A DNA stretch of 64,000 bases from the IMG/VR virus record IMGVR_UViG_3300014838_000016, positions 23,699 to 87,698 of that record, one strand, 5' to 3'. Numbering within the stretch: position 1 is the stretch's first letter; each line of letters begins with the position of its first letter. The stretch is from a virus. The position numbers were made by a program, and so were the translations under genes. Positions 8,113 to 25,610 of this stretch are shown here, in pieces. The notes under the pieces are model-generated. The model saw nothing but the letters and a program-made list of their open reading frames with translations. It had not been told where the DNA came from and searched no databases.

Positions 8113-8392
8113 CCCTTTCTCGTCTTCCCGTCCCTCTAGTAGGTGTGGGTCGGGAGGACGATCTTGTCTCAGAGGCTTGTACTGGAAATCCACCAAAAGT
8201 GCGAAGTCATCATTGAAGCCGTTGGGCGAGATCATGTCCGAATCCGTATCACAGAAACCAACCCTGAATTACTCTCTCCGACCGATTTTGAAATAGAGGG
8301 TGACCCGTGCCACATTTGGGAGGTCTTCACTTCTGCCGCGCTTGTCCTTGCCAATCTCGAAGAAATTTCACGGAGTAACCCCAGCTAAGTTT

Positions 8393-8653
8393 ATGCTCAG
8401 GACCTTCTGCTGCTTTTACTGCGGTCGCGAGTTAAGTAGGAAGAAGAAGACCCGTGACCATAAACAGCCCAAGAGCCGCAACGGTTCGGGTGGTAACGGT
8501 AACATCGTTGACGCCTGCCGTCCTTGCAATCAATTGAAGGGTTGTCTTTCTCTTGAAGAATTCCGTTTGGTGATCGCGTATCAACGCGGACTCGTCAAAC
8601 CTTCGACGATGCTCTTTCCCGGCGAAGAAAAACGTAAAGCCGCGAACGCTTAA
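8393..8653 (+). CDS. small HNH endonuclease
   Basis: CFYCG...TRDHKQPKSRNG...NIVDACRPCNQLKG. Confidence 0.8.
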   Translation: MLRTFCCFYCGRELSRKKKTRDHKQPKSRNGSGGNGNIVDACRPCNQLKGCLSLEEFRLVIAYQRGLVKPSTMLFPGEEKRKAANA

Positions 8654-8658
8654 GTGTT

Positions 8659-9354
8659 TTACCCCTGCATGAATGGCGGCATTTGCCACCAGCCAGAACC
8701 AGCGTTGCCTGCTGTTGGGGCGTAAAACGCCATTCCCATGCAGTGCCAAGAGGACTGGTTTTGGGTAAAGTCGGCACTGACTGCACCGTTGACGTTCAAC
8801 TGATATTCGCTCATGTCGCCGTTTTGGATGCCGCCCGGAGCGCCCGTCCAACCTCCCAATGTGCCGCCTGCGGTTGGAGCGGTGATGGTTCCGCCTGAAC
8901 CTGCCGCCATATAGACAAGGGAATTGGCGAAGTTGGGCGTGATGGTTGGCCCGTTAACGGTTGTGCTGCCCGGGCTGGCAAGCTGCTGTGCGGCGTCTTG
9001 GTCAAATTGCCACGCACCATCGGCGTGAAACTCATCAACGTACATGACCAAGTTCGAACCCGTCGTCCAAGACGCCGTTACGGTCGAACCCGACGTTGAG
9101 GCTGCATTGAGGTTGTAGAGCAAATAGGTACTCGCCGTGAAGCCCGTGAGAACCGTGGGGGAATGGGGTGTGAGGACGTAACTGAAGCTGCTACCGTCTG
9201 TTACGGTCAATGCAGTCACAGCTAACGCCATCTGAATCGCGACGAGGACAAGGTTGCCAGCGGTGATGGCACTGCCCAGCGTGACGGACATGGTTGTGAC
9301 CGTCGCAGGAGCTACGTTGAAGTTGCCCCCGCCCTGTACGTGATTCATCGCCAT
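8659..9354 (-). CDS. putative virion-associated beta-rich protein
   Basis: Thr/Ser/Gly-rich; last gene of the fibre island; coupled to the upstream gene. Confidence 0.7.
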   Translation of the reverse strand: MAMNHVQGGGNFNVAPATVTTMSVTLGSAITAGNLVLVAIQMALAVTALTVTDGSSFSYVLTPHSPTVLTGFTASTYLLYNLNAASTSGSTVTASWTTGSNLVMYVDEFHADGAWQFDQDAAQQLASPGSTTVNGPTITPNFANSLVYMAAGSGGTITAPTAGGTLGGWTGAPGGIQNGDMSEYQLNVNGAVSADFTQNQSSWHCMGMAFYAPTAGNAGSGWWQMPPFMQG

Positions 9355-12300
9355 TAGCTGTTATCCTCTTCCCACTCGTAACTTACGGTAACAGTCTGGG
9401 TTGCGATGACGGCTCCAAGGTTGATGCAAAGCTGCTGAGCTACACCACGCAGGACGATGCAAGCAGCCCCACCGCGAGTACCGAAGTCCCAAAGCCATGT
9501 GTTGGCACCCGTCGTCGCGTTGGAATCGTCGAAGAACTGGATACCGCGAATTGTGCCAACGGCGGTGCCCAAGGTCGGAGCAGCCGTGTAACGGAGCGGG
9601 GCGGCTGAGGCGGCGGCATAGGCGCTGTCGTGAGGTACTGCGGTCATCGCTGCGGAAGTTCCACCCGTGTCCGCCGCTGAACGCTTGACCAACGTAACCG
9701 CTTCCACGCCAGCCGTGCCACTGGTGCTCATGGAGACTTCCACGCGGGTGATACGGATGGTCTTCGAGGCTGAACCCGGAAGCACGGCGATGTCGCCAGC
9801 GACAGGGGTGAAAGTGGCGAAGCAAGAATAGGTTTGCTTACGACCTTCGATGTTGACATAGAGTGCGCCCGTGGTGTCAGACTGTAACGCCCCGGCCTGC
9901 CCTGCTGTAAGAACAAGTGGCGTGGTGTTGTACTCTGCGGATGTGAGGAGAGCATTCGTTGGAGCAGTTGCACCACCAGCGGCGGAATCCACCGAAGCTC
10001 CAGTGCCGCCTGAGATGCCGACCTTCTGGACGCCAGCGGATGCGGCGACCGCAGCTACCGTGCCGATGAACAGGGAAGAGTTGACGCTTCCAGCGATCAC
10101 TGCTCCCGGAGTTGTACCGAAGTTTGCGGGTGCGCCGAGGGCAGTGCCAGCCCATGCTTGCACGTCACTATTCAAAGCACCATGCAAATCTGTAACAGGC
10201 AGAACTTGGTCACCAGTTGTGTAGGTGATGGTGCTGTACGCGGTTTCAGCGACGGCGGGTAATACGCCTACGTTGAAAGCGTTTGGAGCGGCGTTGTTAT
10301 TTGTGAGGTTGCCTTGGAACGACCACGGAGCCCCACCTTGCTGTACGGTCCACGTACCAGACTGAGTGACGGCTACAGTTCCAGTGATGGTTGTAGAGGC
10401 GAGCGAGACTACCCATGGAGACGTGGATTGGGTGACAGCGACCGTGCCGCTGACTGTGACCGCAGGGGAGTTAGTGATGAAAGCGTTGACAGCGGGGACA
10501 GGTACCGCCGCAGGCGAGCCGCCGTAATTGACAACAGCGGTTGCGCCCAATGCCGTACCAGCCACAGCTTGTAAATCTTGGTTAAGAGCACCATGCAAAT
10601 CGGTGACAGGCAATACCATGTCGCCAGTTGCATAGGTGACGGTGCTGTATGCAGTCTCAGCAATCGCAGGGAGGACGCCAAGGAGTGTCGCCGTGGGAGC
10701 CGCATTGTTGTTGGTAAGCGCACCGTCCACGGCAACCGTACCCGTGATCGTGGTAGACGCTAGCGAAACAACCCATGGGCTCGTGCTCTGGGTGACGGCC
10801 ACTGTTCCAGTGATGGCTGTAGATGCAAGTGAAACGACCCAAGGAGATGTGCCTTGGAAACAGTAGGCATTGACACCAATGACTTCTTCACCCGTTGGAG
10901 CGGTTGCCCAAATTGTCGGACCACCAAGAGCCGTACCAGCAAGAGCTTGCAAATCAGTGTTGACAGCGCCGTGCAGGTCAGTGACAGCCAAAACTTGGTT
11001 GCCCGTGGTGTAGGTGTTGGTCGTGTATGCAGTCGCGGCGAGGTAGCCGAGGCTGCCTTGGTTGTTGGCGGCAGGCGCAGCGGTGTTGTTCGATAGGTTT
11101 CCGCCGGGGAATCCAGTGACGTTGACGTTCAACGCACCACCCGTATTCGTCAAGGCGGTCGTACCAGAGAACAAGGAAGCATTGACTGCTGGAACGTTGA
11201 CGGCAGCGGGTGCCGTGCCGAAAGCAGTTACAGCCGTTGCACCAAGCTGAACTCCAGCAACAGCTTGTAAGTCTTGGTTCAAAGCGCCGTGCAAGTCTGT
11301 AACGGGCAATACCATGTCGCCCGTGGTGTAGGTGACAGTGTTGTACGCAGTCTCGGCAATTGCGGGGAGGACACCCAACAGTGTTGCAGTTGGAGCCGCG
11401 TTGTTATTGCTCAATGCGCCGTCAACGGCCACTGTGCCCGTGATAGTTGTAGACGCGAGAGACACAACCCAAGGGGACGTACTCTGGGTGACAGCGACCG
11501 TGCCTGTGATGCCAAAAGTCGTCGGGAAGTTCGTTACGTCAACGTAAATTGGGTTGCCTAAAGCATTCGCCGCAGTGGTAGCGGAGATCGGCACAGGTGC
11601 CGTACCCGATACAGCGTTCTGACCAACGAAGAGTTCCGCGTTGACCGCAGGAACCAGAACGGACGTTGCAGGAGCGGTACCCCAATCAGTAGGTGCTGCG
11701 ATGGTTGCGGTTACAGTACCGCTCACTACCCAAGGAGAAGTCGATTGCGTTACGGCTACAGTGCCAGTGATTGTTGTTGAAGCCATCGTCACAGGCACAG
11801 TGTTAGTGATGAAAGCGTTGACCGCAGGCACATTTACGGCGGCAGGCGTGGAACCATAACCTACGACGGCTGTGGCACCTAATGCGACTCCAGCAACAGC
11901 CGCCAAATCGCTGAACAGAGCACCGTGAAGGTCGGTTGCGGGTAGAACTTGGTCGCCAGTCGTATAGGTAAGGTTTGTGTACGCGGACTCAGCGATGGCT
12001 GGTAGGACGCCGACGTTTGTGGTGTTGGGAGCGGCATTGTTGTTGGTGAGTGTTCCAACGAATGACCATGGTGCCCCACCCTGCTGTACGGTCCACGTAC
12101 CACTTTGAGCAGCTTGTACGGCGAAGGTTCCCGCGTTGGTGACAGCGATAGTTTGACCAGCCGAAATCCCGACTGTCCAAGCGCCCGACTGCGTGACGGC
12201 GACCGTCCCAGATACGGCTACGGTCCCGCTTACGACCCATGGCGAAGTTCCTTGGAAGCAGTAGGCGTTGACGCCTTGAACTTCCTCACCAGTTGGGGCA

Positions 12301-13241
12301 GTCGCCCAAATCGTAGGACCACCGAGTGCCGCACCAGCTAGTGCTTGCCAATCGACGTTCATGGCACCATGAAGATCGGTGACGGGGAGGACTTGATCGC
12401 CCGTCGTGTAGGTGACGGTTGCATACGCAGTCTCAGCGATTGCTGGCAATACGCCGAGGTTGAAGGCGTTCGGTGCTGCGTTGTTATTGGTGAGGTTTCC
12501 AGCGACCGTGCTGCTCGTTGGATTGACCACGTTGACGTAGATTGGATTGCCAGCGTTGTTTGCCGCAGTTGTAGCCGAGACAGGAACAGGCGATGCCCCA
12601 GACACGGCGTTCTGACCCACAAACATTTCGGCATTGACGGCTGGAACCAACACATTTGTGGCCGGTGCAGTACCCCAATCTGTGGGTGTGGGAATAGTTA
12701 CGGACCACGGAGCCCCACCTTGCTGTACGGTCCATGTTCCAGATTGAGTTGCGGCTACAGTCCAAGCGCCTGATTGAGTGACAGCAACAGTTCCCGTTAC
12801 CCCTACTGACCAAGCCCCACTTTGGATGGCGTTTACAGTCCAAGTTCCGCCCTGATCGGCGACAATCGTGCCGCTTACGACCCATGGCGATGTGCATTGA
12901 GTGACACATATCGAGGCGTTGCTGATGGCGACGGTGCCGCTTACAACCCATGGCGAGGTAGCTTGCGTGACGGGAAGCGAGGACTCAGTGAAGGTGACGG
13001 TCAGCGGATTGACCACGTTGACGTTTAATGCCTCAACTGGCGGGCTTCCAGCCAGTGTTGCGGTGAGGGCTGTGCACGATCCAACGAAGAGCGAGGCATT
13101 GACGGGGATTGCGGCTGTAACGCTGGAGCAGCAACCTACGTCGGGGCAGGTGCCAAACGCGCTCGGAGGGCTGAGTGGGGTGTTATCCCACTGCGTTATG
13201 TTGCCCGAAAACGATAGACCAAATGGGTTTTGAACTGGAAT
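9354..13241 (-). CDS. long repeat-built fibre protein (~1295 aa) with probable ATT start
   Basis: Six NN[NT]AAP...TDLHG modules and many VTQxTSPWVVS spacers; frame is open upstream of 13016 to 13274; AAGGGAGAG precedes ATT at 13241. Confidence 0.8.
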   Translation of the reverse strand: MPVQNPFGLSFSGNITQWDNTPLSPPSAFGTCPDVGCCSSVTAAIPVNASLFVGSCTALTATLAGSPPVEALNVNVVNPLTVTFTESSLPVTQATSPWVVSGTVAISNASICVTQCTSPWVVSGTIVADQGGTWTVNAIQSGAWSVGVTGTVAVTQSGAWTVAATQSGTWTVQQGGAPWSVTIPTPTDWGTAPATNVLVPAVNAEMFVGQNAVSGASPVPVSATTAANNAGNPIYVNVVNPTSSTVAGNLTNNNAAPNAFNLGVLPAIAETAYATVTYTTGDQVLPVTDLHGAMNVDWQALAGAALGGPTIWATAPTGEEVQGVNAYCFQGTSPWVVSGTVAVSGTVAVTQSGAWTVGISAGQTIAVTNAGTFAVQAAQSGTWTVQQGGAPWSFVGTLTNNNAAPNTTNVGVLPAIAESAYTNLTYTTGDQVLPATDLHGALFSDLAAVAGVALGATAVVGYGSTPAAVNVPAVNAFITNTVPVTMASTTITGTVAVTQSTSPWVVSGTVTATIAAPTDWGTAPATSVLVPAVNAELFVGQNAVSGTAPVPISATTAANALGNPIYVDVTNFPTTFGITGTVAVTQSTSPWVVSLASTTITGTVAVDGALSNNNAAPTATLLGVLPAIAETAYNTVTYTTGDMVLPVTDLHGALNQDLQAVAGVQLGATAVTAFGTAPAAVNVPAVNASLFSGTTALTNTGGALNVNVTGFPGGNLSNNTAAPAANNQGSLGYLAATAYTTNTYTTGNQVLAVTDLHGAVNTDLQALAGTALGGPTIWATAPTGEEVIGVNAYCFQGTSPWVVSLASTAITGTVAVTQSTSPWVVSLASTTITGTVAVDGALTNNNAAPTATLLGVLPAIAETAYSTVTYATGDMVLPVTDLHGALNQDLQAVAGTALGATAVVNYGGSPAAVPVPAVNAFITNSPAVTVSGTVAVTQSTSPWVVSLASTTITGTVAVTQSGTWTVQQGGAPWSFQGNLTNNNAAPNAFNVGVLPAVAETAYSTITYTTGDQVLPVTDLHGALNSDVQAWAGTALGAPANFGTTPGAVIAGSVNSSLFIGTVAAVAASAGVQKVGISGGTGASVDSAAGGATAPTNALLTSAEYNTTPLVLTAGQAGALQSDTTGALYVNIEGRKQTYSCFATFTPVAGDIAVLPGSASKTIRITRVEVSMSTSGTAGVEAVTLVKRSAADTGGTSAAMTAVPHDSAYAAASAAPLRYTAAPTLGTAVGTIRGIQFFDDSNATTGANTWLWDFGTRGGAACIVLRGVAQQLCINLGAVIATQTVTVSYEWEEDNS

Positions 13242-13381
13242 TAGAGTCTCTCCCTTTGAGCCGCTCGTCTTGCTTCAGACCACGGCTTTCCTTTTGCCCT
13301 GAGTAAGTAAATTATCATGTTCAGTTTGTTCCCATGGTGTGGGACATCAAAACGCTCTCTTATTAGGGATTACATAGTCTT

Positions 13382-14164
13382 TTACTGGAATTCCTGAATG
13401 CTCAACAGCGCACAAAAAGTGGGCGGACTACCGCAACAATTATCGGTGTACGAAAGCCCACTATCGGCTATGGCGTTCACCGCAGCGGTCGTGAAATCAC
13501 TACTATCCATCCAAAACGTGCCTCCGGGTGCCAGCGTGATCCCAGCAAAGAGGATGGCTGGATTGCTACCAAAAGCAATGCTCATCGTGACGTAAGACAT
13601 ATTCGTCAAATTCAGCCCCTTTCTTGAGGGGTTCGACGCCAATATAACCGTCGATGATGTGTTCACGCATATAGATTCAGGTGCATTGGCGACAGTGGCG
13701 GTCTGCGGGCAACAGGGGGGTGCGGTGGTGACGAACGAATCCGCCGAGTAACCGAAGACCACCGAACCGCAGACGGGCGGGCTTCCACAGGCTGTTCCCG
13801 TGATCGGACTGAGGAGGATGACCTGAAAATACGGTATGGCGGTGAGGTTGAATTCAGCCGCTAGAAAGGTATTAGCTTGGAGATCGTAAACTGGGCCGAC
13901 CGCCCCGCCGATTCCCGGCACATAACCCGTGAGGGGGAACCAGTTCACGCCATCGGTGCTGCCTTGGAACTGAACCGCTCCACCAGTGATGCAGCCTTGA
14001 TCTAGGGTGACGATTAGGGTGTTGTACGAGTAGTCGTTGTTTACTATTGTGGCCGTCGTACTGACTGGCGTGGCGCATTCCCATGGCGGAAATGTCGCAC
14101 CACATTGAGTGTTTTCGCCGACACTCAGAACTGCGGAAATACTGTATTGTGACTCGACGTGCAT
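13382..14164 (-). CDS. Cys-rich putative virion protein with two beta domains
   Basis: FQGSTDGVNWFP and ASNPSRKGLNLTN motifs; CGSPP occurs twice. Confidence 0.7.
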   Translation of the reverse strand: MHVESQYSISAVLSVGENTQCGATFPPWECATPVSTTATIVNNDYSYNTLIVTLDQGCITGGAVQFQGSTDGVNWFPLTGYVPGIGGAVGPVYDLQANTFLAAEFNLTAIPYFQVILLSPITGTACGSPPVCGSVVFGYSADSFVTTAPPCCPQTATVANAPESICVNTSSTVILASNPSRKGLNLTNMSYVTMSIAFGSNPAILFAGITLAPGGTFWMDSSDFTTAAVNAIADSGLSYTDNCCGSPPTFCALLSIQEFQ

Positions 14165-14244
14165 TCTAATCCCCTATAAATGGGCGGCAAAGCTTAAAAA
14201 CGTGCGAACCGTCAAAATCCTAATTTTATTGAGAAAATGAGAGC

Positions 14245-14394
14245 TTACCTCATGCAGTTGCACAATTTTTCCTTGCGCTTGGTGGTCGCTTTACGGGCAT
14301 CCGCACACGTGTTACAGTGATAGGTCACACTGCCATCTTGGTTGTAGACACGCCATTGAGCTTGTTGACCGCACGAACATATTACTTTTGCCAT
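14245..14394 (-). CDS. small zinc-ribbon protein
   Basis: MAKVICSCG...HCNTC...CNC; overlaps the GT2 stop. Confidence 0.55.
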   Translation of the reverse strand: MAKVICSCGQQAQWRVYNQDGSVTYHCNTCADARKATTKRKEKLCNCMR

Positions 14395-15035
14395 AGCTTT
14401 TGAATTGTCTCCCATGATTCGGGTTTGTAGTCCTTGCTCAGGTGCTTCCTGCAAGCATTGGCCGTATGGATCGCCGCTACGACCAAGGCAGGATCGTTCA
14501 GATCGTACCTCGCTGCAACAGGCGTCTTCTTTTGAAAATTGTAGTCGGCTCCCGAGTTGATGTTGTCGAACTTGTTTTTCTCCCAAGCGGATTTGCGTAT
14601 CGCGATAGATGCCATCCATCCGATCCCTTTTGGACTCGTGTATCGGTACGCCAACGCGCTGCCGTGCTGGTAGTAGTAGAGGGTGCTCGTCCCCGAGACG
14701 TGCAGTGCGGGGTTCTCAATGAGCGGTGTGATCTGGCGGGTGATTCGATTCGCTGGGTACCAGTCATCGTCATCCCAAATAATTCCGAATTCCCCGCTCG
14801 ATAGCTCAAAGCACCTATTTATTTTCGCCCCATGATGTTTTTTCGGGCTTTCATGGAAATATTTGACCCTCGGGTCGGCGGGCAGGAGGTCTTGAATTGG
14901 TTCCGCACCGTCATCCAATATGATTAGTTCGAGGTTGGGGTAGTCCTGAGAAAGAAAACACTCTATGGCCCGAGGAAAGAATGCCCTACGGTTGAAGGTT
15001 GGCGTCAGTGCGCTTACGAGGGGAAAATCAGACAT
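14382..15035 (-). CDS. glycosyltransferase family 2 (GT-A fold)
   Basis: VSALTPTFNR, SQDYPNLELIILDDG and WDDDDWY motifs. Confidence 0.92.
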   Translation of the reverse strand: MSDFPLVSALTPTFNRRAFFPRAIECFLSQDYPNLELIILDDGAEPIQDLLPADPRVKYFHESPKKHHGAKINRCFELSSGEFGIIWDDDDWYPANRITRQITPLIENPALHVSGTSTLYYYQHGSALAYRYTSPKGIGWMASIAIRKSAWEKNKFDNINSGADYNFQKKTPVAARYDLNDPALVVAAIHTANACRKHLSKDYKPESWETIQKLWQK

Positions 15036-15867
15036 GGCATAACCTACAATTTGGGTTGATTATCCCACGCCTGACATGCCAACGAATATGACTAGCGGCT
15101 CGTCCGCCTAAGACCGTAATACGAGCTAAGTGTCCATTTTCAATGTTCTTTCGTCCTTGAGCACGTCCTAAAGATTGTATATGCCCATTTTCGACATTCT
15201 TACAGCCTTGAATACGCCCAAGCTCTTGTATGTGCCCGCTTTCAACATTCTTGCGTCCCTGAATAGGGCCACTAATTCGTCCGCCAATACTGCCGCCGAC
15301 ATGACCGAACTTGGACCGTTGTTCTGGTGTAAGCGAAAGGGCGGCTAGTCGGCGTATCCTATCCAAGTGTCCACTTTCCACATTCTTGCGATGTAGAGCT
15401 TGCATGTGCCCGCTTTCAACATTCTTGCGTCCTTGGATGCGCCCGTTTTCAGCGTTCTTGCGCCCTAAGGCTTGTATTTGCCCGCTCTCAGCGTTTTTGC
15501 GCCCTAACGCTCTAGTTTTCTCAACTAATTTCACCCTGCCCCTTTCATAGATTTCGGCGTAGCGAGGCAACTCATCCACGGCTACCTGATAAACACTTTT
15601 CCTGTTCGCCATGAGATAGAACACCTTCTCAAATTCTGAAGCACACATCGCCAACCAGTAGTGAGCCCTGAAATGGTCCGCAGGCGATACCCGCATGATG
15701 TTGCTTGTATCCCTAGTTAATTCAGGGAATTCTTTCCTCGGGAGGATGTGGTGCTTGTGCCCTACGCTTGCTTTCGACAAAGACTCGATGAATGTAAAGT
15801 ATAATGTGAAGTCCACGTCGGGGAAACGGACGGACAAAATTTCACGAAGATGTATGGGAACGGTCAC
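15028..15867 (-). CDS. HNH-like homing endonuclease with seven GRKNVESGH-type repeats
   Basis: HKHHILPR...N....S..DHFRAH; C-terminal HxRWH...CRLC. Confidence 0.75.
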   Translation of the reverse strand: MTVPIHLREILSVRFPDVDFTLYFTFIESLSKASVGHKHHILPRKEFPELTRDTSNIMRVSPADHFRAHYWLAMCASEFEKVFYLMANRKSVYQVAVDELPRYAEIYERGRVKLVEKTRALGRKNAESGQIQALGRKNAENGRIQGRKNVESGHMQALHRKNVESGHLDRIRRLAALSLTPEQRSKFGHVGGSIGGRISGPIQGRKNVESGHIQELGRIQGCKNVENGHIQSLGRAQGRKNIENGHLARITVLGGRAASHIRWHVRRGIINPNCRLCHV

Positions 15868-15868
15868 G

Positions 15869-16162
15869 TTAGTCCTCTATGCACTTCTTCATTATAGCCG
15901 CCACGACTTGAGAAAGCATAACGACCACAAACACTCGTACAATGTAGTCGGCAACGCTGTGGCACAAGGATTTGCGGTATATTAACACCAAAATCATTGC
16001 TACCCAGTGCGAAACGCACCATGTACATGACAATAATTCGTCTAAAAATGGGAATTTTGATGCCAGCCAGTCGTGGGGTTTGGCAAAAATCTTCCCCTTG
16101 GCTACGACCAAACTGAGCGCCCCGCACGCAACGCCGAGTTCCAGCAAGACAGCAAGAATCAT
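15869..16162 (-). CDS. DUF1360-like membrane protein
   Basis: LLSCTWCVSHWVA motif; three hydrophobic segments. Confidence 0.65.
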   Translation of the reverse strand: MILAVLLELGVACGALSLVVAKGKIFAKPHDWLASKFPFLDELLSCTWCVSHWVAMILVLIYRKSLCHSVADYIVRVFVVVMLSQVVAAIMKKCIED

Positions 16163-16176
16163 ATTGGATAATACTC

Positions 16177-16212
16177 AAAAAGAAAGGGATGCTGGGCAGC
16201 ATCCCCTTTTGT
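16177..16212 (-). terminator. intrinsic terminator, probably bidirectional
   Basis: GGGATGCT/AGCATCCC stem with A and T tracts on both sides, just downstream of the 844-aa gene. Confidence 0.75.
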
Positions 16213-16227
16213 TTTCAACCGTTAAAA

Positions 16228-18762
16228 TTAGCCGCAGATCGAAGTCTGTTCGCTCCATCTACATTGTGCAACGGCCTTGGCGCATCCCCTGAAGCTCTTG
16301 CCGGCAATCGTGTAAGTCTTGCCGTTCAAGCAGTCCATGAGACCGTCGTAGTTGCGTGGGAAAGCTGCCGCGTAGCCAGCCCAGACGATGGTGCCGCCCG
16401 TGACGCCAGTTGATGCGGTATCCACATTGACGTTGCCCGGACCAGCCGCGAATGCGGAACCAGTGAGCGTCCCGCCTTCGATAAGCTGGAACAGAACCGT
16501 GGAGCCGTCCGTGAAGACCTGAATTTCGCGGAGTAGCTGTACAAGAGCCGCCGTGCCATTGCCTTGAATCGACCACAGCGGGACGAACGCAGTCGTCATG
16601 ACCTGAGTGTCGAACGCCGCACCGCTGTCGTAGGAGTAGTACTGGATCGAGCAAGCAAACTGCTCGTCCGCAGGGATGGTGACGAGTGCGCCCGATGGTG
16701 AGAGCGACAAGTCCTGATTCGAGCCGAGCGGGAAGGTGTTCGGCCCGCAAATGACCGTTGCCAGTTCGAGCACTGGGGTTGGCATACCACCCGTGATAAA
16801 GACGTTGAGAGATGTCTCAGCGGGGCTGCCCATGGTCGTGTAGGTGTTGCCGCATACGTTGAGACAGGTGTTGGTAATATCAACGAAGAGCGGGGTGTCA
16901 ATGGTGTTGGTGACAGTGACGGTGCCCGTGACGGTGACCGTACCAGTGACGCTTACGGTGCCGCCTGTGATATCGACATAGATCGGAGTGTCGAAGGTGT
17001 TTGCAACGTTGACGTTAAGGAAAGACTCTGCTGGGCTGCCGAGCGTTGTGAAAGTCGCCCCGCATACGTTGAGGCAAGCGTTGGTAACGTCAACGTAGAT
17101 CGGAGTGTCGGGTGTGTTTGAGTTGAGGGTGACATCACCGCCAGTAACGAAAACGTTGAGTGAAGACTCCGCTGGGCTACCTGAAGCTGTGAACGTCGCA
17201 CCAGTGAGGCCGACCGTCCAAGTACCCGCCTGATTTACGAACCAATCGCCGCACTGTGTAGCGCATACCGTGCCGCCAACGCTGAAGACGTTGAGTCCTG
17301 TTTCCGCAGGGCTTCCAACAGTCGTCGTGCCGACGCCCGTGATGTTGATCGTGCCGCCCGTAACATCGACATAAATCGGGGTATCGATGGTGTTCGAGAC
17401 GGTAATGTCGCCGCCCGTAACAAAGGTGTTGAGGGAGGATACCGCAGGACTACCAACCTCCGAGAAGGTTGCTCCGCACACATTGATGCAAGCGTTGGTG
17501 ATGTTTACATCGACCGTGTTGCCGATGTCAACGGTGCCAGTGACGGTGATGGCTCCACCCGGCCCCGTACCAGTGACGGTTACGACGCCAGTGATGGTAT
17601 CAATCGTGCCGCCCTCAACGAAGACGTTGAGTGAGGATACCGCTGGGCTACCAGCGACCGTGAAGGTTTGTCCGCATACGTCGATGCAGGCATTGGTTAT
17701 GTCAACGTAGATCGGGGTTTCTGGCGTGTTCGAGTTGAGGGTAACATCGCCGCCGAGGACGAAAACGTTAAGACCTGCTTCGGCTGGGCTGCCTACGAGA
17801 GTCGTTCCAATAGGAACGCCGCCAATTTCAGTGATGTTGGTGACCCACGGGGATGTGCACTGGGTGACGCAAATCTCGCCGCCAGTTACAAATGTGTTGA
17901 GGCCGCATACCTGAACAGTAGCGCAATCGGGAGTGGTGACGATTTCCGCAGCCGAGATTGTGACCGCACCATTGTTGGCGAGTGCACGACCAGTAAGTGT
18001 ACCGCCGCCGAGAGTGATGCTTGCAACGGCGAGGATGGTGCCTTCAGTGATTGCACCCGGCCCGATGGATGTCCAAGAACTTCCAGCGACCCAAACGATG
18101 TTGCACGCCTGTGCTCCGTTAGCCAAGAGGATCGTGCCAGCAATCTGCTGAGTGATGCCACTGCCAGCGAGGAACACGAACACTGCATCAGGGTTGCCCT
18201 GTGCATCAAGAGTAATCGGTGTGTTGATGGCGAGGGTTGAGCCGCTCGAATAAACGCCCGGGTAGTAAGTCCCAACGGGGGCACCGATGGAGTTCTGCGT
18301 GCCCATGTCCGCCGTGGTGAGTACCGTTCCCGGCCCCAGACCTTGGTAATAAGCGATGGCGTTTGCTACAGCCGTCTGATCTCCAGCCGTGGCGGTGACA
18401 ATCGCCGCAGGAGCGACAACTACGCCCGGTGGGAATCCGATAATTGAATTTGTTGGGTACGAACCGACATTATCGCCCGAGATGACCGAGGAGCCCGAGT
18501 TCGTTACGCCGCTGGAGCCGAGGAGGGCGTAGTTTGCTGCTGAGCCGAGGTGAGAAAGTGTAGGGGAGATTCCACCCGTGCAAGTTGTTCCCACCCCTTG
18601 GATGGTGACTTCTGGGATGTTGATGACGCCGACATTGATCGAGGCGACAGCGGGGCTGCCCGAGACTGTAATGAGGGGACAACCCGTAGTATCGTCGTAG
18701 ATACCAAAGACGGAGATTCCCGTGTACAGCCCGCCCGCACAAGATGAACAATTTTCTGGCAT
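16228..18762 (-). CDS. fibre/decoration protein containing an ice-binding-type DUF3494 domain
   Basis: LGSAANYALLG..GVTN, PGVY, ITLDAQGNPDAVFVF, LANGAQACNIVW, GTILA..SITL..GRALA; followed by GSPA repeats. Confidence 0.85.
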   Translation of the reverse strand: MPENCSSCAGGLYTGISVFGIYDDTTGCPLITVSGSPAVASINVGVINIPEVTIQGVGTTCTGGISPTLSHLGSAANYALLGSSGVTNSGSSVISGDNVGSYPTNSIIGFPPGVVVAPAAIVTATAGDQTAVANAIAYYQGLGPGTVLTTADMGTQNSIGAPVGTYYPGVYSSGSTLAINTPITLDAQGNPDAVFVFLAGSGITQQIAGTILLANGAQACNIVWVAGSSWTSIGPGAITEGTILAVASITLGGGTLTGRALANNGAVTISAAEIVTTPDCATVQVCGLNTFVTGGEICVTQCTSPWVTNITEIGGVPIGTTLVGSPAEAGLNVFVLGGDVTLNSNTPETPIYVDITNACIDVCGQTFTVAGSPAVSSLNVFVEGGTIDTITGVVTVTGTGPGGAITVTGTVDIGNTVDVNITNACINVCGATFSEVGSPAVSSLNTFVTGGDITVSNTIDTPIYVDVTGGTINITGVGTTTVGSPAETGLNVFSVGGTVCATQCGDWFVNQAGTWTVGLTGATFTASGSPAESSLNVFVTGGDVTLNSNTPDTPIYVDVTNACLNVCGATFTTLGSPAESFLNVNVANTFDTPIYVDITGGTVSVTGTVTVTGTVTVTNTIDTPLFVDITNTCLNVCGNTYTTMGSPAETSLNVFITGGMPTPVLELATVICGPNTFPLGSNQDLSLSPSGALVTIPADEQFACSIQYYSYDSGAAFDTQVMTTAFVPLWSIQGNGTAALVQLLREIQVFTDGSTVLFQLIEGGTLTGSAFAAGPGNVNVDTASTGVTGGTIVWAGYAAAFPRNYDGLMDCLNGKTYTIAGKSFRGCAKAVAQCRWSEQTSICG

Positions 18763-18866
18763 GATGATTTCCTTATGAATCTAGTTTTGTATTTGGCGGG
18801 CGTACCCACCCCAGAAAACTTTCCTTACTTTAGAAAACGGAAGTTTGAAAATATCCAAACCCCCAA

Positions 18867-19667
18867 CTAAAACGGTTCCGTCCATTGTATTGAAGCACTT
18901 ACACAATTTGCCAGCGATCCCATCTGAGTGACCACTAGAGTGTATCGGCTGCCGACTAGAACCGGGGGACTTCCTACCTCCACAAAAGCGTATGGAAAAT
19001 ATAATCCTGACTGTAGCGTCACCTCATTAAGTTGCATATAGCCGCTGTTCACAACACGGCCTCCAGAGATTGCCGAGGCTGATGTGTCGTAAACCATAAC
19101 GGACTCCGAGTCAACGCTCTTGAAAGTCGCGCCGATCAATGTTCCGTCTAGCACTATTTGCCAAAGCACCCTTGACCCGTTTCCAGCTAGGTTGAAACCG
19201 CCGAGCAGGGGGAAGTTTAGGGTAATCAATGCAGTGTCGGGCTGGAGAGAGATCAAGGGGACTGGGGTAAGACTGGGTATGATGGTCGGGGTTGTCCCCG
19301 TGTTCACCGAAAATGGATTTCCAGTCAAACCTGCCTGAATAACGGTCGTCGCTAATATGGGGCTGTTGCTGGTCGCGGCTGCGCTGACGTAAACCAACTG
19401 TATGTCGAACGCTTGGATGACTCCAGCAGCTATAGGCGTGAACAGTGTGAGCGTAAAATTGCTGTTGGCATCTACTGTGGCGGTTCCAGCAGGCGACCCC
19501 ATTGATGAGATATTTATCGCAGTTGGCGGGACGTAACCCTGATTTGATAGGAGGGTGACCGATCCTGTTCCGACTTGCAAAATATCGGAAAGCGGGAAGG
19601 TGAATACGGTTGAAACACCGTCGCCCTGCAACAAGAGTGTGATCGGGACTATTTGTTGTAGTGGCAT
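18867..19667 (-). CDS. putative virion protein; C-terminal domain paralogous to the 844-aa protein
   Basis: VPLISLQ...GTLIGATF...DTSASAISGG...SGY...WTE aligns with VPLWSIQ...GTLTGSAF...DTASTGVTGG...AGY...WSE. Confidence 0.75.
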   Translation of the reverse strand: MPLQQIVPITLLLQGDGVSTVFTFPLSDILQVGTGSVTLLSNQGYVPPTAINISSMGSPAGTATVDANSNFTLTLFTPIAAGVIQAFDIQLVYVSAAATSNSPILATTVIQAGLTGNPFSVNTGTTPTIIPSLTPVPLISLQPDTALITLNFPLLGGFNLAGNGSRVLWQIVLDGTLIGATFKSVDSESVMVYDTSASAISGGRVVNSGYMQLNEVTLQSGLYFPYAFVEVGSPPVLVGSRYTLVVTQMGSLANCVSASIQWTEPF

Positions 19668-19668
19668 C

Positions 19669-20907
19669 TTATTCCTCTGTCCATGTAATTCTGACGGTCA
19701 TTAGCGAACCCGCTATCGCAAGATTAGAAACGCTGATACCTACAAAGTCGTTTACGCCCCTGAGCGTAATCGCTTGAACACTGTTCACACCGAAATTAAG
19801 TTCAATAGGGGTAGGTCCCACCAACGTGCTCGTGTTGGTGATCCATTGCATAGCCTCGGCTCCTATAACGCCCGCGTTGTAAGTCGTTGTCGTCGGTAGC
19901 GTCGTCCACTGACTCACTATTGCTGTGACTGTTGGGTTCACTGGATCGTCAGGTACAGAAACCACGGTGGTGAATGTTCCTCCAGTGATGGCTGTGAAGC
20001 GGTTTATGACTATCACGCTAGGTCCAGAATTGCCTGTGCTGCAAGCCCAAGAAATTTTCATGTGGCGAATCCTGATTACCTTTGTTGCGGAACCCTGAAT
20101 CGTGAAAAACGGCTTGATGGGATCAGCTACGGGTACGAAGTTAATTTGACACGCACGATACGTTGCTTTACGTCCCGTGTCATCCACATACAACGCACCC
20201 GTTGAATCTAAAGTCAATGGCAAAACCGTTCCCGCAGCATAATCGGGTACGGAAATGGACTCCACGACGCCGCCGACTTCCACAGTCAGTGGATTGACAA
20301 CATTTACATCAAGCGCGAACGTTGCTGGGCTACCAGAGTAGCTTCCTTGCAGCCATTGAAGATCGCCATTCGGGTCCTGTATGCCGATACCGATGGGTTG
20401 CTGGCATGTTGGCGGGGCGTAAGCTGGTGCGGGACAAATGGGACTTCCCGCTGGATACAGACCTTGCACTTGTGGATCAGCCCAAACCGCGCTAGTATTT
20501 CCGGGTTGGGAGATGAGAAGCTGACCAGCATGTGTTGGATGGCTGAGGTCTACTTCTACTTTTGTTCCAACTTCGTCAGTGCAGAGATACGCCGCACTCC
20601 CGCACGCCACAATGCCTGTGGCGTCGAAGATGTAGCCACAGTCTGGACTGTAGGTGATGTTGATGCCAGTACCGGGGATGAAGTTGAGGATGTCTTGACA
20701 CGGCGACGGAACGCCGTTGATTTCTATTACGACCCCCGTTGATAACGGCAAAAGGCATGGGTCAATTTTGCAGTCAGGTCCAAGCAGAACGATAGCGCCG
20801 GGTTCCGCAGGGCAGCAGCCGCTTACCATAGGTATGCGGTACTCCGTCCAGAACTGCTGGTTCGCTTTGTCCTTACGATCTGCGATTACACTATATATCG
20901 TGGACAT
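19669..20907 (-). CDS. Cys-rich putative virion protein; C-terminal domain paralogous to 9354..13241
   Basis: TGALYV...GRKxTY...GSAxKxIRI...LRGV...WxE shared with the long fibre. Confidence 0.75.
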   Translation of the reverse strand: MSTIYSVIADRKDKANQQFWTEYRIPMVSGCCPAEPGAIVLLGPDCKIDPCLLPLSTGVVIEINGVPSPCQDILNFIPGTGINITYSPDCGYIFDATGIVACGSAAYLCTDEVGTKVEVDLSHPTHAGQLLISQPGNTSAVWADPQVQGLYPAGSPICPAPAYAPPTCQQPIGIGIQDPNGDLQWLQGSYSGSPATFALDVNVVNPLTVEVGGVVESISVPDYAAGTVLPLTLDSTGALYVDDTGRKATYRACQINFVPVADPIKPFFTIQGSATKVIRIRHMKISWACSTGNSGPSVIVINRFTAITGGTFTTVVSVPDDPVNPTVTAIVSQWTTLPTTTTYNAGVIGAEAMQWITNTSTLVGPTPIELNFGVNSVQAITLRGVNDFVGISVSNLAIAGSLMTVRITWTEE

Positions 20908-20915
20908 TATTCCTC

Positions 20916-23900
20916 TTAGTTCGGGTTTCCCGTGACCATACAGTTAAATGTTTGTGCCCCGCTCGTGGCGTAGGTGATGGTAAAGCCGCTGTTGCTTGAC
21001 GCCGATATATAGAAAGCGCCCGCGTTCGTTGTCGGCGTCACTACGACGATAGGCGTACTGGTGTAGTTCACCGCGTACGTCTTGCTCACGGTCGTGCCCG
21101 ACCCCGAGGTTATGACGCCTGCGGTGTCCCCGTTTGCCGCCGACACGTTGCCGTGACCCGCCTGCATGACGTTGCCCTTGTTGTCAACACTGAACACTTC
21201 GGTCGTCCCCGCCGCACCTGCAAAACAGTCGATCAATTTGTTCGCAGTGCCGAGCAACGCAGTCTCAGTGACGGCGACCTTTAGAGCCGTGTAAGAGCCC
21301 GATGCCGTAAGGGTCTGGTTGATGGTGGGGGCGATTTGCATGGCAGTGAAGGTGCCAGCACCAGCCGTGGGTGCCCAGTTCAGATGCACGGAGTTGTTCC
21401 CGCCGAGGCTAACCTCTGCGCCGACGTTGATGCCTATGTATGGACCTGCCCCAGTTGTTGCCCATGTTGATCCACCATGCCCCAAGCTAACAAGAGGTTT
21501 TCCACCCGTGTAAGTAGCTGATGGAGACTGGGCGCTGCCAATCTCGGCGGTCCCCAACGCCAATTGATTGTACAAACCAAAGCTAACGCTTGTGCTTTGC
21601 GACGTTATGCTGCCTTGATTAGTACCTCCTTGATAGCCACGCATTATGTCCACACTGCCAGCAATCGTAGCCACTAAGAGTGGGAAACTAGCATTGCCCC
21701 CAATGCTAATTCCGCAAGTAGCTCCCGCTGGACCGATGATCTGTGGATCGGTAACGCCGTAGCTTAGCGGCGTCGGTAACTGAATCTGCGCTGCACCTGT
21801 CGTTCCTGTGTGTGCGATGGTCAAGGTGCTGATGGCGTTCGTGCCCGCTGTCATCACCGAGCCTATCGTCCATTGATCGTTGGCTGACGCGCCGTTCCAG
21901 TACTGTGCAGAAAATCCATGCAGCGGCGATGCGTTGGTCGTGATCGCCGATGCAGTGGTTGTATTCTCCCAATCCCAAAGCACGGCTGAAGTCTGGTTAA
22001 ATGTCGTCGTGAAGCCAGCGTTGGCAAGCGTGAGGTTCCCCGTGGCGTTGGTCAGCGCAGACCATGCGTTGGTGATGGTTGGAGTGCCGCTCAACGCGGC
22101 GTATGCGATGGAGCCCGCAGCAAAGGAAGTCGTGCCACTGACGGTGATGTTGGCAAAAGCTGCGGTGCCAGTGAATGTGGGAGAAGCTAATGGAGCAGCG
22201 CCTGTGACTTGAGCCACAGTGTAATCGCCTGATGTTGCTACGACTGCACCAGTACGACCGAAGACGCTGGTTACAGGAGCGGTCAAAGCTGTGATATAGC
22301 CTTGAGCTTGCACGTATGCTGTTGTTGCAATTTTTGTGCTGTTATCCGCCGTTGCAGGAGTGGTTGATGTTGGCACTCCAGTGAAAGCAACGTTGCCTGT
22401 GAGGGTAGGAGCACCGGCCCACGATCCGCTTATGGTGCCGCCGCTGGAAGTTAATGTGCCAGAGACAGTTTCCGTGCCAGACATCGTGTAGGCACCGCTC
22501 ATGGTTCCTGTAAACGCCCATGTGCCTGTAGTTGCGAAGGCTGTTACAACTAAGGAGCCAGCCGCAAAAGCTGCCGTGCCTGATACTGCGATGTTATTTG
22601 CGAACGTCACTGTACCACTGAAAGTCGGAGATGCAAGAGGTGCAAGCAAAGCTTCGGCGGCTATAGCACGTCCTCTTTCAACTGAAACTGCGGAGTCCGC
22701 GTAAGCTGTAGTTGCAATCTGAGTGTTGGCTGTTAGCGGTGATGCAGTTGGTGCGGTTGGAATTCCAGTGAACGCGGGGGATACCAACGGTGCCGCGCCA
22801 GTAACTTGAGCTACAGTGTAGTCACCACTTACCGCTATGACCGCACCAGTGCGACCAAAGACCGAAGTGACGAGGCTGCTGGCTGCCGTCAAATACCCCT
22901 GTGCTTGCACGTAGGCTGTCGTCGCAATCCTCGTGCTGTTGTCGCTGGTCAAGGGCGTGGTAGACAACGGTGTTCCAGTGAACGTTGGGGATACTAGGGA
23001 CGCTGCACCCGTAACCATGGCGACGGTGTAGTCGCCGCTTACGGCGATAACTACGCCAGTTCTCCCGAAGACCGATTGCACTGGTGCTCCGGCCGAAGTA
23101 ATATAGCCCTGCGCCTGCACGTAAGCAGTTGTCGCTATTTTTGTGGAGTTGTCCACTGTTGCTGGCGTAGAGGATGTCGGTGCTCCTGTGAAGTTCACGT
23201 TGCCATTTAACGTGGTGATTGTCGCCGTAGTGATAGCAGCGGTCGGAATTGTCACCGTCCCAATGAAAGTCGGAGACGCCAGATATGCGAGCGACGTGTA
23301 ATCACTCAGGTCGGTTGATGCGGGCTGAGTCGCCGTGAACAGCCCTGTGATCGCGGAGTAGGAGTTCAGCCACTCATGCGTGATGGCACCAAAAGTCGAG
23401 GGTAACACAGTGGTGTTTGATAGAGCGTCGGTGATGCCGTACCCAGCAAGCGTAGTCGGATGAGACGACAAGTCCGTGAATGCCAAATCCACCACGCCAA
23501 TAAATCCGTTGACGCTTGTGACGGCGGCTGGGGGAAACAGGAGTTCCACCCAATTGCTGAGCACAGAAGCAGGTGTAGCAGCAAGAATGAACGTTTCGTT
23601 GACATCCGTCCGTACAGCAACTTCCCCCTGAGTATCGGGCAAGGCAAGCATTGCGGCTTGGCTCGCAACTACGTAAGTATTGGTGAGCGGGATAACAGGA
23701 AGCTGCGACGTGGGAACCAATCCGCCAGCGTCCAATGACGCATAGCCGTTCGGTTGCCCCTTCTGTGACAAAGGTTGGAGTAACGTTTCGGCGGCTTCCG
23801 CTCGTGAAGTTTCAACCCCTACCGCTGAATCAACATAGGCTGTCGTCGCGATCTGGTTGTTGTCTGTTAGAGGAGCGGCTGTCGGTGCAACAGGAATTCC

Positions 23901-25424: not shown

Positions 25425-25610
25425 TTTGCTCCGAGTTAGCTGAATGCAGACGGACGCCGACGTAAGCGCACTACGACCGCTGTTCATGCTTAGAAACGGC
25501 CTTGTGGTTGGGGTTCCGCCTCTATCTATGTGTCTGAAAAACTGGTTTTCGTTTCGCGGACAAAATTGGGAAAATCGTTGTCTGGTTCGAAGTCCATATA
25601 CTGTAACCCG

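Follow-up and report, generated by a model that had tools for sequence, protein, structure and literature searches.

The 64,000-nt stretch of viral DNA analysed here (the window) corresponds to bases 23699-87698 of the 87,698-bp linear IMG/VR record IMGVR_UViG_3300014838_000016 (G000). Between positions 8659 and 20907 it carries an island of virion genes in which the tetrapeptide GSPA or GSPP, hereafter GSP[AP], recurs in the company of a family 2 glycosyltransferase (GT2). According to CheckV, G000 is 26% complete. Among its relatives, G006 extends to 265 kb (78% complete) and G019 to 463 kb (100%); near-complete records of this jumbo clade span 265-463 kb, and CheckV estimates imply ~340 kb for most of them. 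G000 is therefore a fragment of a jumbo phage. No close relative was found among 50,697 deposited phage genomes, and among INPHARED phages the island has no nucleotide match, the 412-aa protein p412 has no protein match and the GT2 has distant matches only.

All genes considered in the finding are on the minus strand, and five of them encode virion proteins with GSP[AP]. The fibre protein p412 (412 aa, 19669-20907) contains one GSPATFALDVNVVNPLT module (20334), the source of its SGSPAT, and a fibre-type C-terminal domain. The virion structural protein p266 (266 aa, 18867-19667; phrog_1645) has GSPA at 19499 (MGSPAG) and GSPP at 18974 (VGSPPV), and the virion protein p844 (844 aa, 16228-18762), which has 25 Cys residues, has eight GSPA. 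The two beta-sandwich domains of p260 (260 aa, 13382-14164) carry GSPP at aa 127 (13786, CGSPPVC) and aa 245 (13432, CCGSPPTFC). Finally, the long fibre, probably 1295 aa (9354-13241), displays GSPP at 13049 (AGSPPVE) and GSPA at 10520 (GGSPAA), the former counting only if the ATT at 13241-13239 is the start codon. With that proviso, each copy listed by the first-pass annotation is present. Between p844 and p260 are encoded the soluble 217-aa GT2 (14382-15035; PF00535, GT-A fold, DDDDW motif) and a 97-aa DUF1360-like membrane protein (15869-16162; PF07098) with CTWC in a hydrophobic segment.

Altogether, the five genes hold 15 copies of GSP[AP], the ATT-start fibre copy included, against ~0.45 expected from amino-acid composition (0.03-0.12 per protein), and 14 of the 15 GSP tripeptides of the island continue with Ala or Pro. 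When the fibre is counted from its first canonical start, there are 14 copies in 4756 aa of island virion proteins, with 0.44 expected. The region of the other large DUF3494 protein of the record has four copies in 1684 aa (0.15 expected), and the remaining ~130 open reading frames (ORFs) of G000 have two in 20,427 aa (0.49 expected), one of which is on a doubtful antisense ORF. The density is thus ~2.9 per 1000 aa in island virion proteins compared with 0.1 per 1000 aa in the other G000 proteins. The recurrence that the first-pass annotation noticed is thus confirmed, and more strongly than it had been described. The neighbouring 1523-aa tail fibre (20916-25487, minus strand), assigned to PHROG tail-fibre families, has no GSP[AP], which shows that a fibre need not carry the motif. 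A breadth test limited to exact 4-mers did not reach significance after family-wise correction, whereas the count-based and cross-genome tests were.

For the cross-genome test, whole records were fetched and GSP[AP] counts were compared with the composition expectation. The motif is over-represented 4.7-18x in five genomes, all of which have a glycosyltransferase or glycan-synthesis island: G000 (20 observed, 1.10 expected; Poisson P 9e-19), G007 (22 and 2.19; 3e-15), G006 (21 and 3.38; 1e-10), G021 (16 and 3.26; 4e-07) and G011 (14 and 2.95; 3e-06). G010, a 33% fragment close to G011, has 8 copies for 1.67 expected. Two members of the jumbo clade that have no island, G012 and the complete, 463-kb G019, yield 2 against 2.77 and 7 against 6.36, respectively, and the 26% fragment G020 yields 1 against 0.97. 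The values are 1 against 1.50 for G003 and 2 against 1.22 for G004 (both ~100 kb and 95% complete) and 2 against 1.36 for the complete, ~110-kb G013, none of the three having a GT2 of the subfamily found in the window. Summed over genomes, GSP[AP] occurs 77 times in G000, G006, G007 and G011 and seven times in G012, G003, G004 and G013. Fifty-five unrelated DUF3494 control loci contain 26 copies where 16.3 are expected, and 16 versus 15.5 once two loci belonging to clade members are removed; the composition null model thus holds.

Only the exact tetrapeptide is enriched. Every reordering of G, S and P, the motif read backwards, GTP[AP], GAP[AP] and GSP followed by a residue other than Ala or Pro occur at similar levels in both genome sets, and xSP[AP] lacking Gly stays at 0.7-1.3 times its expected count throughout. 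Sixty of the 85 sites in the enriched genomes lie outside the fibre repeat described below, have unrelated flanks and are mostly GSPP. In G006 the proteins that carry them are the tail sheath (phrog_2839), one of the baseplate wedge (phrog_6), fibres and large proteins without annotation. A GSPPGYLGH in a Clp/Hsp100-like ATPase (G006 212580-213752; G011 178646-179848) is a conserved motif of that family itself and a false positive.

Most copies in the window share one origin. The p844 protein is made up of an ice-binding-like DUF3494 domain (aa 81-274), seven fibre repeats of the form FTxxGSPAxxxLNVFV together with a degenerate N-terminal copy, and a C-terminal beta-sandwich domain; the Gly codons of its eight GSPA begin at 18660, 17793, 17652, 17454, 17316, 17181, 17040 and 16830. 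The repeat, F-T-x-x-G-S-P-[AP]-x-x-x-[LI]-[ND]-V-x-V (in the window F-T-x-x-G-S-P-A-x-x-x-L-N-V-F/Y-V), holds 10 of the 15 copies, namely the eight of p844, the one of p412 and one at the N-terminus of the long fibre, so that two thirds of the window copies are in a single repeat, between predicted strands. Metagenomic homologues carry many copies of it (P0010 alone has >10), and a degenerate DNA pattern of the repeat matches only four IMG/VR contigs. A PDB profile search with the p844 repeats found nothing. Being part of one old fibre repeat, these ten copies were inherited and not independently acquired. The earlier proposal that the motif was acquired repeatedly consequently holds only for other copies, which are insertions in p260 and 3-8-residue insertions or deletions at the sheath and in relatives.

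Within the repeat, the Ser codon of GSP[AP] alternates between AGY and TCN from copy to copy and synonymous positions differ throughout, which indicates that the motif residue is kept by selection; recent gene conversion as the source of the copies is ruled out by the same synonymous differences. Furthermore, orthologues whose identity is only 34-63% still share the motif. The p412 orthologue in L001, a locus syntenic with the island, has three modules where the window has one, and p412 and the long fibre have a common C-terminal domain. The C-terminal domain of p266 is a paralogue of that of p844, and the second p266 copy is retained as GSPA, in the same loop, in the L001 orthologue (34% identical). 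The description of VGSPPV as an insertion relative to the paralogue holds weakly, the p266 loop being two residues longer than that of the p844 C-terminal domain.

The two copies in p260 are of another kind. Both are Cys-bracketed, as the first-pass annotation had noted, and both are insertions relative to homologues. The copy at aa 127 lies in an 8-residue insertion not present in 14 homologues: the N-domain family reads ITGT-G where the window, L001 and P0006 have ITGTACGSPPVCG. The copy at aa 245 lies in a ~14-residue insertion before the last strand, and ~50 C-domain homologues read NAIAS...SNLAIQEF where p260 has NAIADSGLSYTDNCCGSPPTFCALLSIQEF. In the AlphaFold2 model of p260 (mean predicted local distance difference test, pLDDT, of 85) both GSPP copies are located in loops between strands. 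The fold has a weak Foldseek resemblance to XepA/YomS. The domains of p260 are modular: the ~85-residue C-terminal beta-sandwich (13382-13870) recurs in 890 representative proteins of varied lengths (E<=0.001), usually at their C-terminus, and the N-domain heads many fibre-like proteins of 500-1400 aa, a pattern of modular shuffling.

In the long fibre, AGSPPVE is located upstream of the first canonical start, a GTG at 13016, in a frame that remains open for 86 further codons upstream of the first ATG/GTG/TTG. The L001 orthologue has an ATG exactly at the position of the window ATT (13241-13239), behind AAGGGAGAG, a Shine-Dalgarno-like run. The window has ~105 extra bases between the p260 stop and the ATT, with an 8-codon mini-ORF included (13239-13382). 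Judged from this alignment, the fibre probably starts at the ATT, or else the start codon has been altered by mutation or sequencing error. The GSPP at 13049 belongs to an N-terminal module of the LNV repeat type. By contrast, GGSPAA at 10520 arose as a chance variant within a different repeat, [FY]G[GST][STA]P[AG]A, whose sister copies read GSTPAA and GTAPAA and, in G002, GTSPGA and GSAPAA. Collectively, the data support a motif that is non-random, sited in loops and specific to virion proteins.

Natural pairs of related genomes with and without the glycan genes provide a further line of evidence. G011 has 58 ORFs in common with G012 and 66 with G019, at 52-54% identity. It also has a 12-kb glycan block (L155; 108.5-120.2 kb) that encodes a GT6-like, two GT31-like and a GT11 transferase, a GDP-mannose 4,6-dehydratase (GMD), an epimerase/reductase, a DegT aminotransferase, a methyltransferase, the small GT2 and a second GT2. 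The orthologues flanking this island abut in G012 (58.4-58.6 kb, gap ~250 bp) and in G019 (172.2-172.4 kb, gap ~170 bp); no homologue of the G011 island genes was found in either genome, and the complete G019 has no GT2 of the subfamily anywhere. In G012 the motif is missing from all 11 orthologous positions that can be aligned, mostly through 3-8-residue gaps. The tail sheath is the clearest case, with DGGGSPPGNQT in G011, AAAGSPPTVGS in G006 and SGG------NT in G012. Across sheath loci L201-L222 (aa ~175-190) this site is graded from GSPP through A/V/Y-SPP and a shorter A/TPS loop to the full deletion of G012. Moreover, G020, which the sheath tree places as sister to G006, has none of the five GSPP sites of a 1024-aa protein; its contig ends just before the syntenic island position. 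Enriched and non-enriched genomes are interleaved on the sheath tree. GSP[AP] is thus a real, selected virion motif displayed on loops in a jumbo-phage clade. The data show that it is specific in sequence, confined to virion proteins, gained and lost through small insertions and deletions and co-variant with the glycosyltransferase island.

The GT2 of the window is the only PF00535 match (73.6 bits, cut-off 23.3, aa 8-121) and the only glycosyltransferase in the 88-kb record. Its PDB profile matches include K4CP, heparosan synthase, SpsA and PglI (2.5e-16 to 6e-12). It reaches no NCBIfam equivalog cut-off among WcaA, PglI, TuaG, EpsE and PgaC, the best score being 48.4 bits versus 382-500, over the first ~100-140 residues only. 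The phage enzymes form a compact subfamily, whose members (205-230 aa) align from end to end and have a distinctive, conserved C-terminal half, and which is found in 38 IMG/VR loci and 53 metagenome clusters; IWDDDDWY, an acidic DxD-type motif, is conserved in six of six aligned members. In siphovirus-like contigs the gene directly follows the major capsid gene or directly precedes that of the major tail protein. In the window it stands between fibre genes, an arrangement syntenic in L001, G006 and G007. The L001/G008 enzyme is 85% identical, with the same gene order except for a homing endonuclease gene described below; that of G006 is 57% identical and has a TylF-like O-methyltransferase upstream, and that of G007 is 54% identical and is followed by a second GT2, a DXD transferase and a GT11. 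In G000, G008, G006 and G007 the GT2 is within ~2 kb of fibre genes bearing GSPA-type repeats, and metagenome contigs matching in length suggest further co-location. In three of the siphovirus-like contigs (L060 4676-5101, L061 5842-6267 and L062 8414-8839) a subfamily GT2 lies directly upstream of a 141-aa major-tail-protein-like gene whose product has GSPA near its N-terminus and a Thr-rich end (LTTxITTTP), with NSPF or SSPP at the former site in related tail proteins. A two-by-two test of major tail protein site against GT2 was dropped, as it comprised only five loci and the site is generally x-S-P-x in the family.

The first-pass annotation had correctly placed the GT2 and the CxxC-bearing DUF1360-like membrane protein in the same island, while missing a 279-aa HNH homing endonuclease (15028-15867, minus strand; phrog_655) between them. 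The latter has internal GRKNVESGH-type repeats, coincides with the lowest-GC stretch of the island (0.49) and is not found in the syntenic L001. The DUF1360-like protein matches only the C-terminal half of the PF07098 model (26.6 bits in the window and 23.9 in L001, cut-off 21); it is 69% identical in L001, whose proteins are likewise Cys-rich and which is the sole other holder of the conserved protein, none being found in more distant relatives. A comparison with oxidoreductase families of the thioredoxin/DsbA/DsbB/VKOR type returned, at E<=1 in Pfam, only DUF1360 and a sub-threshold DUF2427, and nothing in NCBIfam, and a literature search on DUF1360 function found nothing. The suggestion that the CxxC protein forms disulfides in the Cys-rich virion proteins thus finds no support and is speculation.

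The remaining features of the island lie on the minus strand unless stated otherwise. Two strong terminator-like hairpins at 18838-18865 and 16183-16208 (the latter with an 11-bp stem and T run) bracket p844, the second directly following it and preceding the DUF1360/GT2/p260/fibre run; given this arrangement, these genes may form a late transcription unit of their own or may depend on read-through. A 49-aa Cys-rich ORF between the GT2 and p260 genes (14245-14394; CxC...CxxC, zinc-ribbon-like) overlaps the last GT2 codons and is kept in L001/L064 (68 bits). The 231-aa p231 (8659-9354), located 3' of the long fibre, is syntenic in L001 and has no motif. Just outside the island, a second HNH endonuclease ORF (PF01844, 4.9e-07) occupies window positions 8300-8653 on the plus strand.

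We hypothesize that GSP[AP] is an acceptor or tag for virion O-glycosylation encoded by the phage itself, a candidate explanation that we tentatively favour over its rivals. The Ser of the motif might serve as the acceptor, or the tetrapeptide as the recognition tag, in the cytoplasm before assembly, with glycosyltransferases of the phage itself as the enzymes. Of these, the 217-aa GT2 encoded among fibre genes is the candidate initiating enzyme; in relatives the glycan might be extended by GT2, GT6, GT11 and GT31 transferases, the GMD, the DegT aminotransferase and methyltransferases. Most window copies would have been inherited with the fibre repeat, and the others would be lineage-specific loop insertions, closed by Cys in p260. 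Somewhat more doubtful is the extended form of the hypothesis, in which GSP[AP] would be a portable O-glycosylation tag, gained and lost by giant soil phages as loop insertions of 4-14 residues so as to coat sheath, baseplate and fibres with glycans; after loss of the island the tags would decay and their loops be deleted. That the modification is a sugar, that Ser is its site and which enzyme reads the motif are what we infer from these patterns.

Several observations weigh against this hypothesis. The 71% record G021 has other glycosyltransferases at the syntenic island and no small-subfamily GT2, yet is enriched. Conversely, G002 (complete, 111 kb) has a 32%-identical subfamily GT2 within a glycan cluster of two GT31-like genes, a GT10-like gene, DegT and an epimerase, yet not one GSP[AP] in 35,209 aa. 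In addition, GT2 homologues at 39-53% identity are found in loci without motif enrichment. The motif load thus goes with the glycosyltransferase island in the jumbo clade, and does not follow this particular enzyme in G021 and G002; with the unenriched distant loci, these exceptions place the link at the level of the island within the jumbo clade, this GT2 being a candidate only. Lipid-linked or saccharide acceptors are the usual substrates of GT2 enzymes, including the nearest named relatives (WcaA, PglI, SpsA and the chondroitin and heparosan synthases). The p844 repeats and C-terminal domain gave no usable model (pLDDT 36). Finally, several of the compared records are incomplete and, the genomes being related, a trifurcation of the sheath tree leaves room for a single gain or loss of the island.

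The main rival, unlikely in our estimate, sees in GSP[AP] no more than an unmodified turn, structural or adhesive, of the SPXX beta-turn type and peculiar to the lineage; the glycosyltransferases would act on host envelope glycans or on phage DNA, and the co-variation would stem from common ancestry or host. In its favour, ten of the fifteen window copies fall between predicted strands within a single repeat, the GT2 relatives are polysaccharide or lipid-linked-acceptor enzymes, G002 combines a glycan cluster with zero motif, and the sheath-tree trifurcation limits the independence of the contrasts. A generic turn, however, would also be expected in the homologues of island-less genomes, where the loops are instead deleted and the motif is at chance; nor are permuted or Gly-less variants enriched, and the GT2 is encoded among late fibre genes, on the same strand. 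As to DNA, the title of a preprint indicates that glycosyltransferase clusters of phages hypermodify it (bioRxiv 10.1101/2023.12.21.572611). When five genomes were checked for Tet/JBP and ThyA, no Tet/JBP gene was found and a ThyA-like gene was present in G006 only, so that DNA glycosylation finds no consistent hydroxymethyl-pyrimidine pathway in these genomes.

Two further rivals retain the idea of recognition. The motif could be another kind of site, for Ser phosphorylation or dephosphorylation, prolyl hydroxylation, proteolysis or the docking of a chaperone or decoration protein, which we consider improbable. Ser-Pro is the minimal site of proline-directed kinases. G006 has genes for a PP2C Ser/Thr phosphatase (238515-239306 = L147:18515-19306) and a GNAT acetyltransferase (119294-119794), both of which also occur in G011, and no homologue of either was found in G012, G003, G004 or G013; these are among the genes that share the phyletic pattern. 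The PP2C and GNAT absence in G012 is not backed by synteny, though, and for PP2C may reflect incompleteness, in contrast to the absence of the glycosyltransferase island, which synteny demonstrates in G012 and G019. Moreover, no kinase or hydroxylase was identified, and in the window fragment only the GT2 adjoins motif-rich genes. We give a similarly low likelihood to the possibility that another transferase of the island, such as the second GT2 or a GT31-type enzyme, glycosylates the motif while the 217-aa GT2 extends the glycan or serves another acceptor. The enrichment of G021, which has syntenic homologues of the GT31, GT11, GT6-like and second GT2 genes of G011 in a differently composed island without the small GT2, fits this version, and with G000 only 26% complete other glycosyltransferases may lie off the record. 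On the other side stand the small GT2 being the sole glycosyltransferase of the 88-kb record, its position within ~2 kb of GSPA-repeat fibre genes in four genomes and the additional co-location suggested by the metagenome contigs. Chance or amino-acid composition, with which the non-significant exact-4-mer test would agree, is effectively refuted by Poisson probabilities of 9e-19 to 3e-06 in the five enriched genomes when the controls and G019 conform to expectation.

To our knowledge, glycosylation of virions by phage enzymes has been experimentally documented only for a few mycobacteriophages, with no recognition motif known, and a full-text literature search found no paper describing a phage O-glycosylation sequon. 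The bacterial O-glycosylation sequons (D-S/T-A/I/L/V/M/T of Bacteroidota, and the Ser in Ala/Pro-rich stretches of PglL-type systems) are likewise short motifs with Ser next to small residues or Pro, at exposed sites of unrelated proteins; there, however, preassembled glycans are transferred in the periplasm by oligosaccharyltransferases, whereas phage virions are put together in the cytoplasm, and the present system has no oligosaccharyltransferase. The autotransporter heptosyltransferases AAH and TibC are similar in that a cytoplasmic transferase modifies Ser at turns of the repetitive, beta-rich adhesins AIDA-I and TibA, but they are bacterial and differ in enzyme family and sugar. The chlorovirus PBCV-1 encodes its own nucleotide-sugar enzymes (GMD and epimerase/reductase) and several GT-A transferases for a non-canonical acceptor site, to which the GMD, epimerase/reductase, DegT and GT6/GT11/GT31/GT2 genes of the G011 island form a counterpart; it differs in that its glycans are N-linked to Asn and its host is a eukaryotic alga. 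The phage GT2 itself has the GT-A N-terminal domain and DxD motif of WcaA, PglI, SpsA, K4CP and heparosan synthase, but is shorter (205-230 aa), has a C-terminal half of its own and is encoded in virion gene modules.

The mycobacteriophages Che8, Corndog and Myrna glycosylate capsid and tail tube with their own transferases (Freeman et al. 2023, via PMC12619734, PMC12363180). Phage glycosyltransferases modify virion proteins there in the cytoplasm before release and several glycosyltransferase genes can cooperate, as would be the case here; the glycans are reported at the C-termini of capsid and tail tube subunits, and no internal tetrapeptide tag is described. By contrast, the candidate targets in the present system are the fibres, sheath and baseplate of jumbo myovirus-like phages, and the candidate enzyme is a small GT2.

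GSP[AP] is therefore a testable candidate for the first phage virion glycosylation tag, and the genomes provide natural pairs with and without it, namely G011 and G021 versus G012 and G019, and G006 versus G020. Should the motif prove unmodified, the vanishing of a tetrapeptide together with a 12-kb glycan island would still need explaining. If correct, the hypothesis would make GSP[AP] the first sequon to be defined for virion glycosylation in phages, and the tag and its small soluble transferase would form a pair for protein glycoengineering. It would also account for a class of small insertions and deletions in structural proteins, and would mean that giant phages of the environment commonly bear glycan coats on their tails and fibres.

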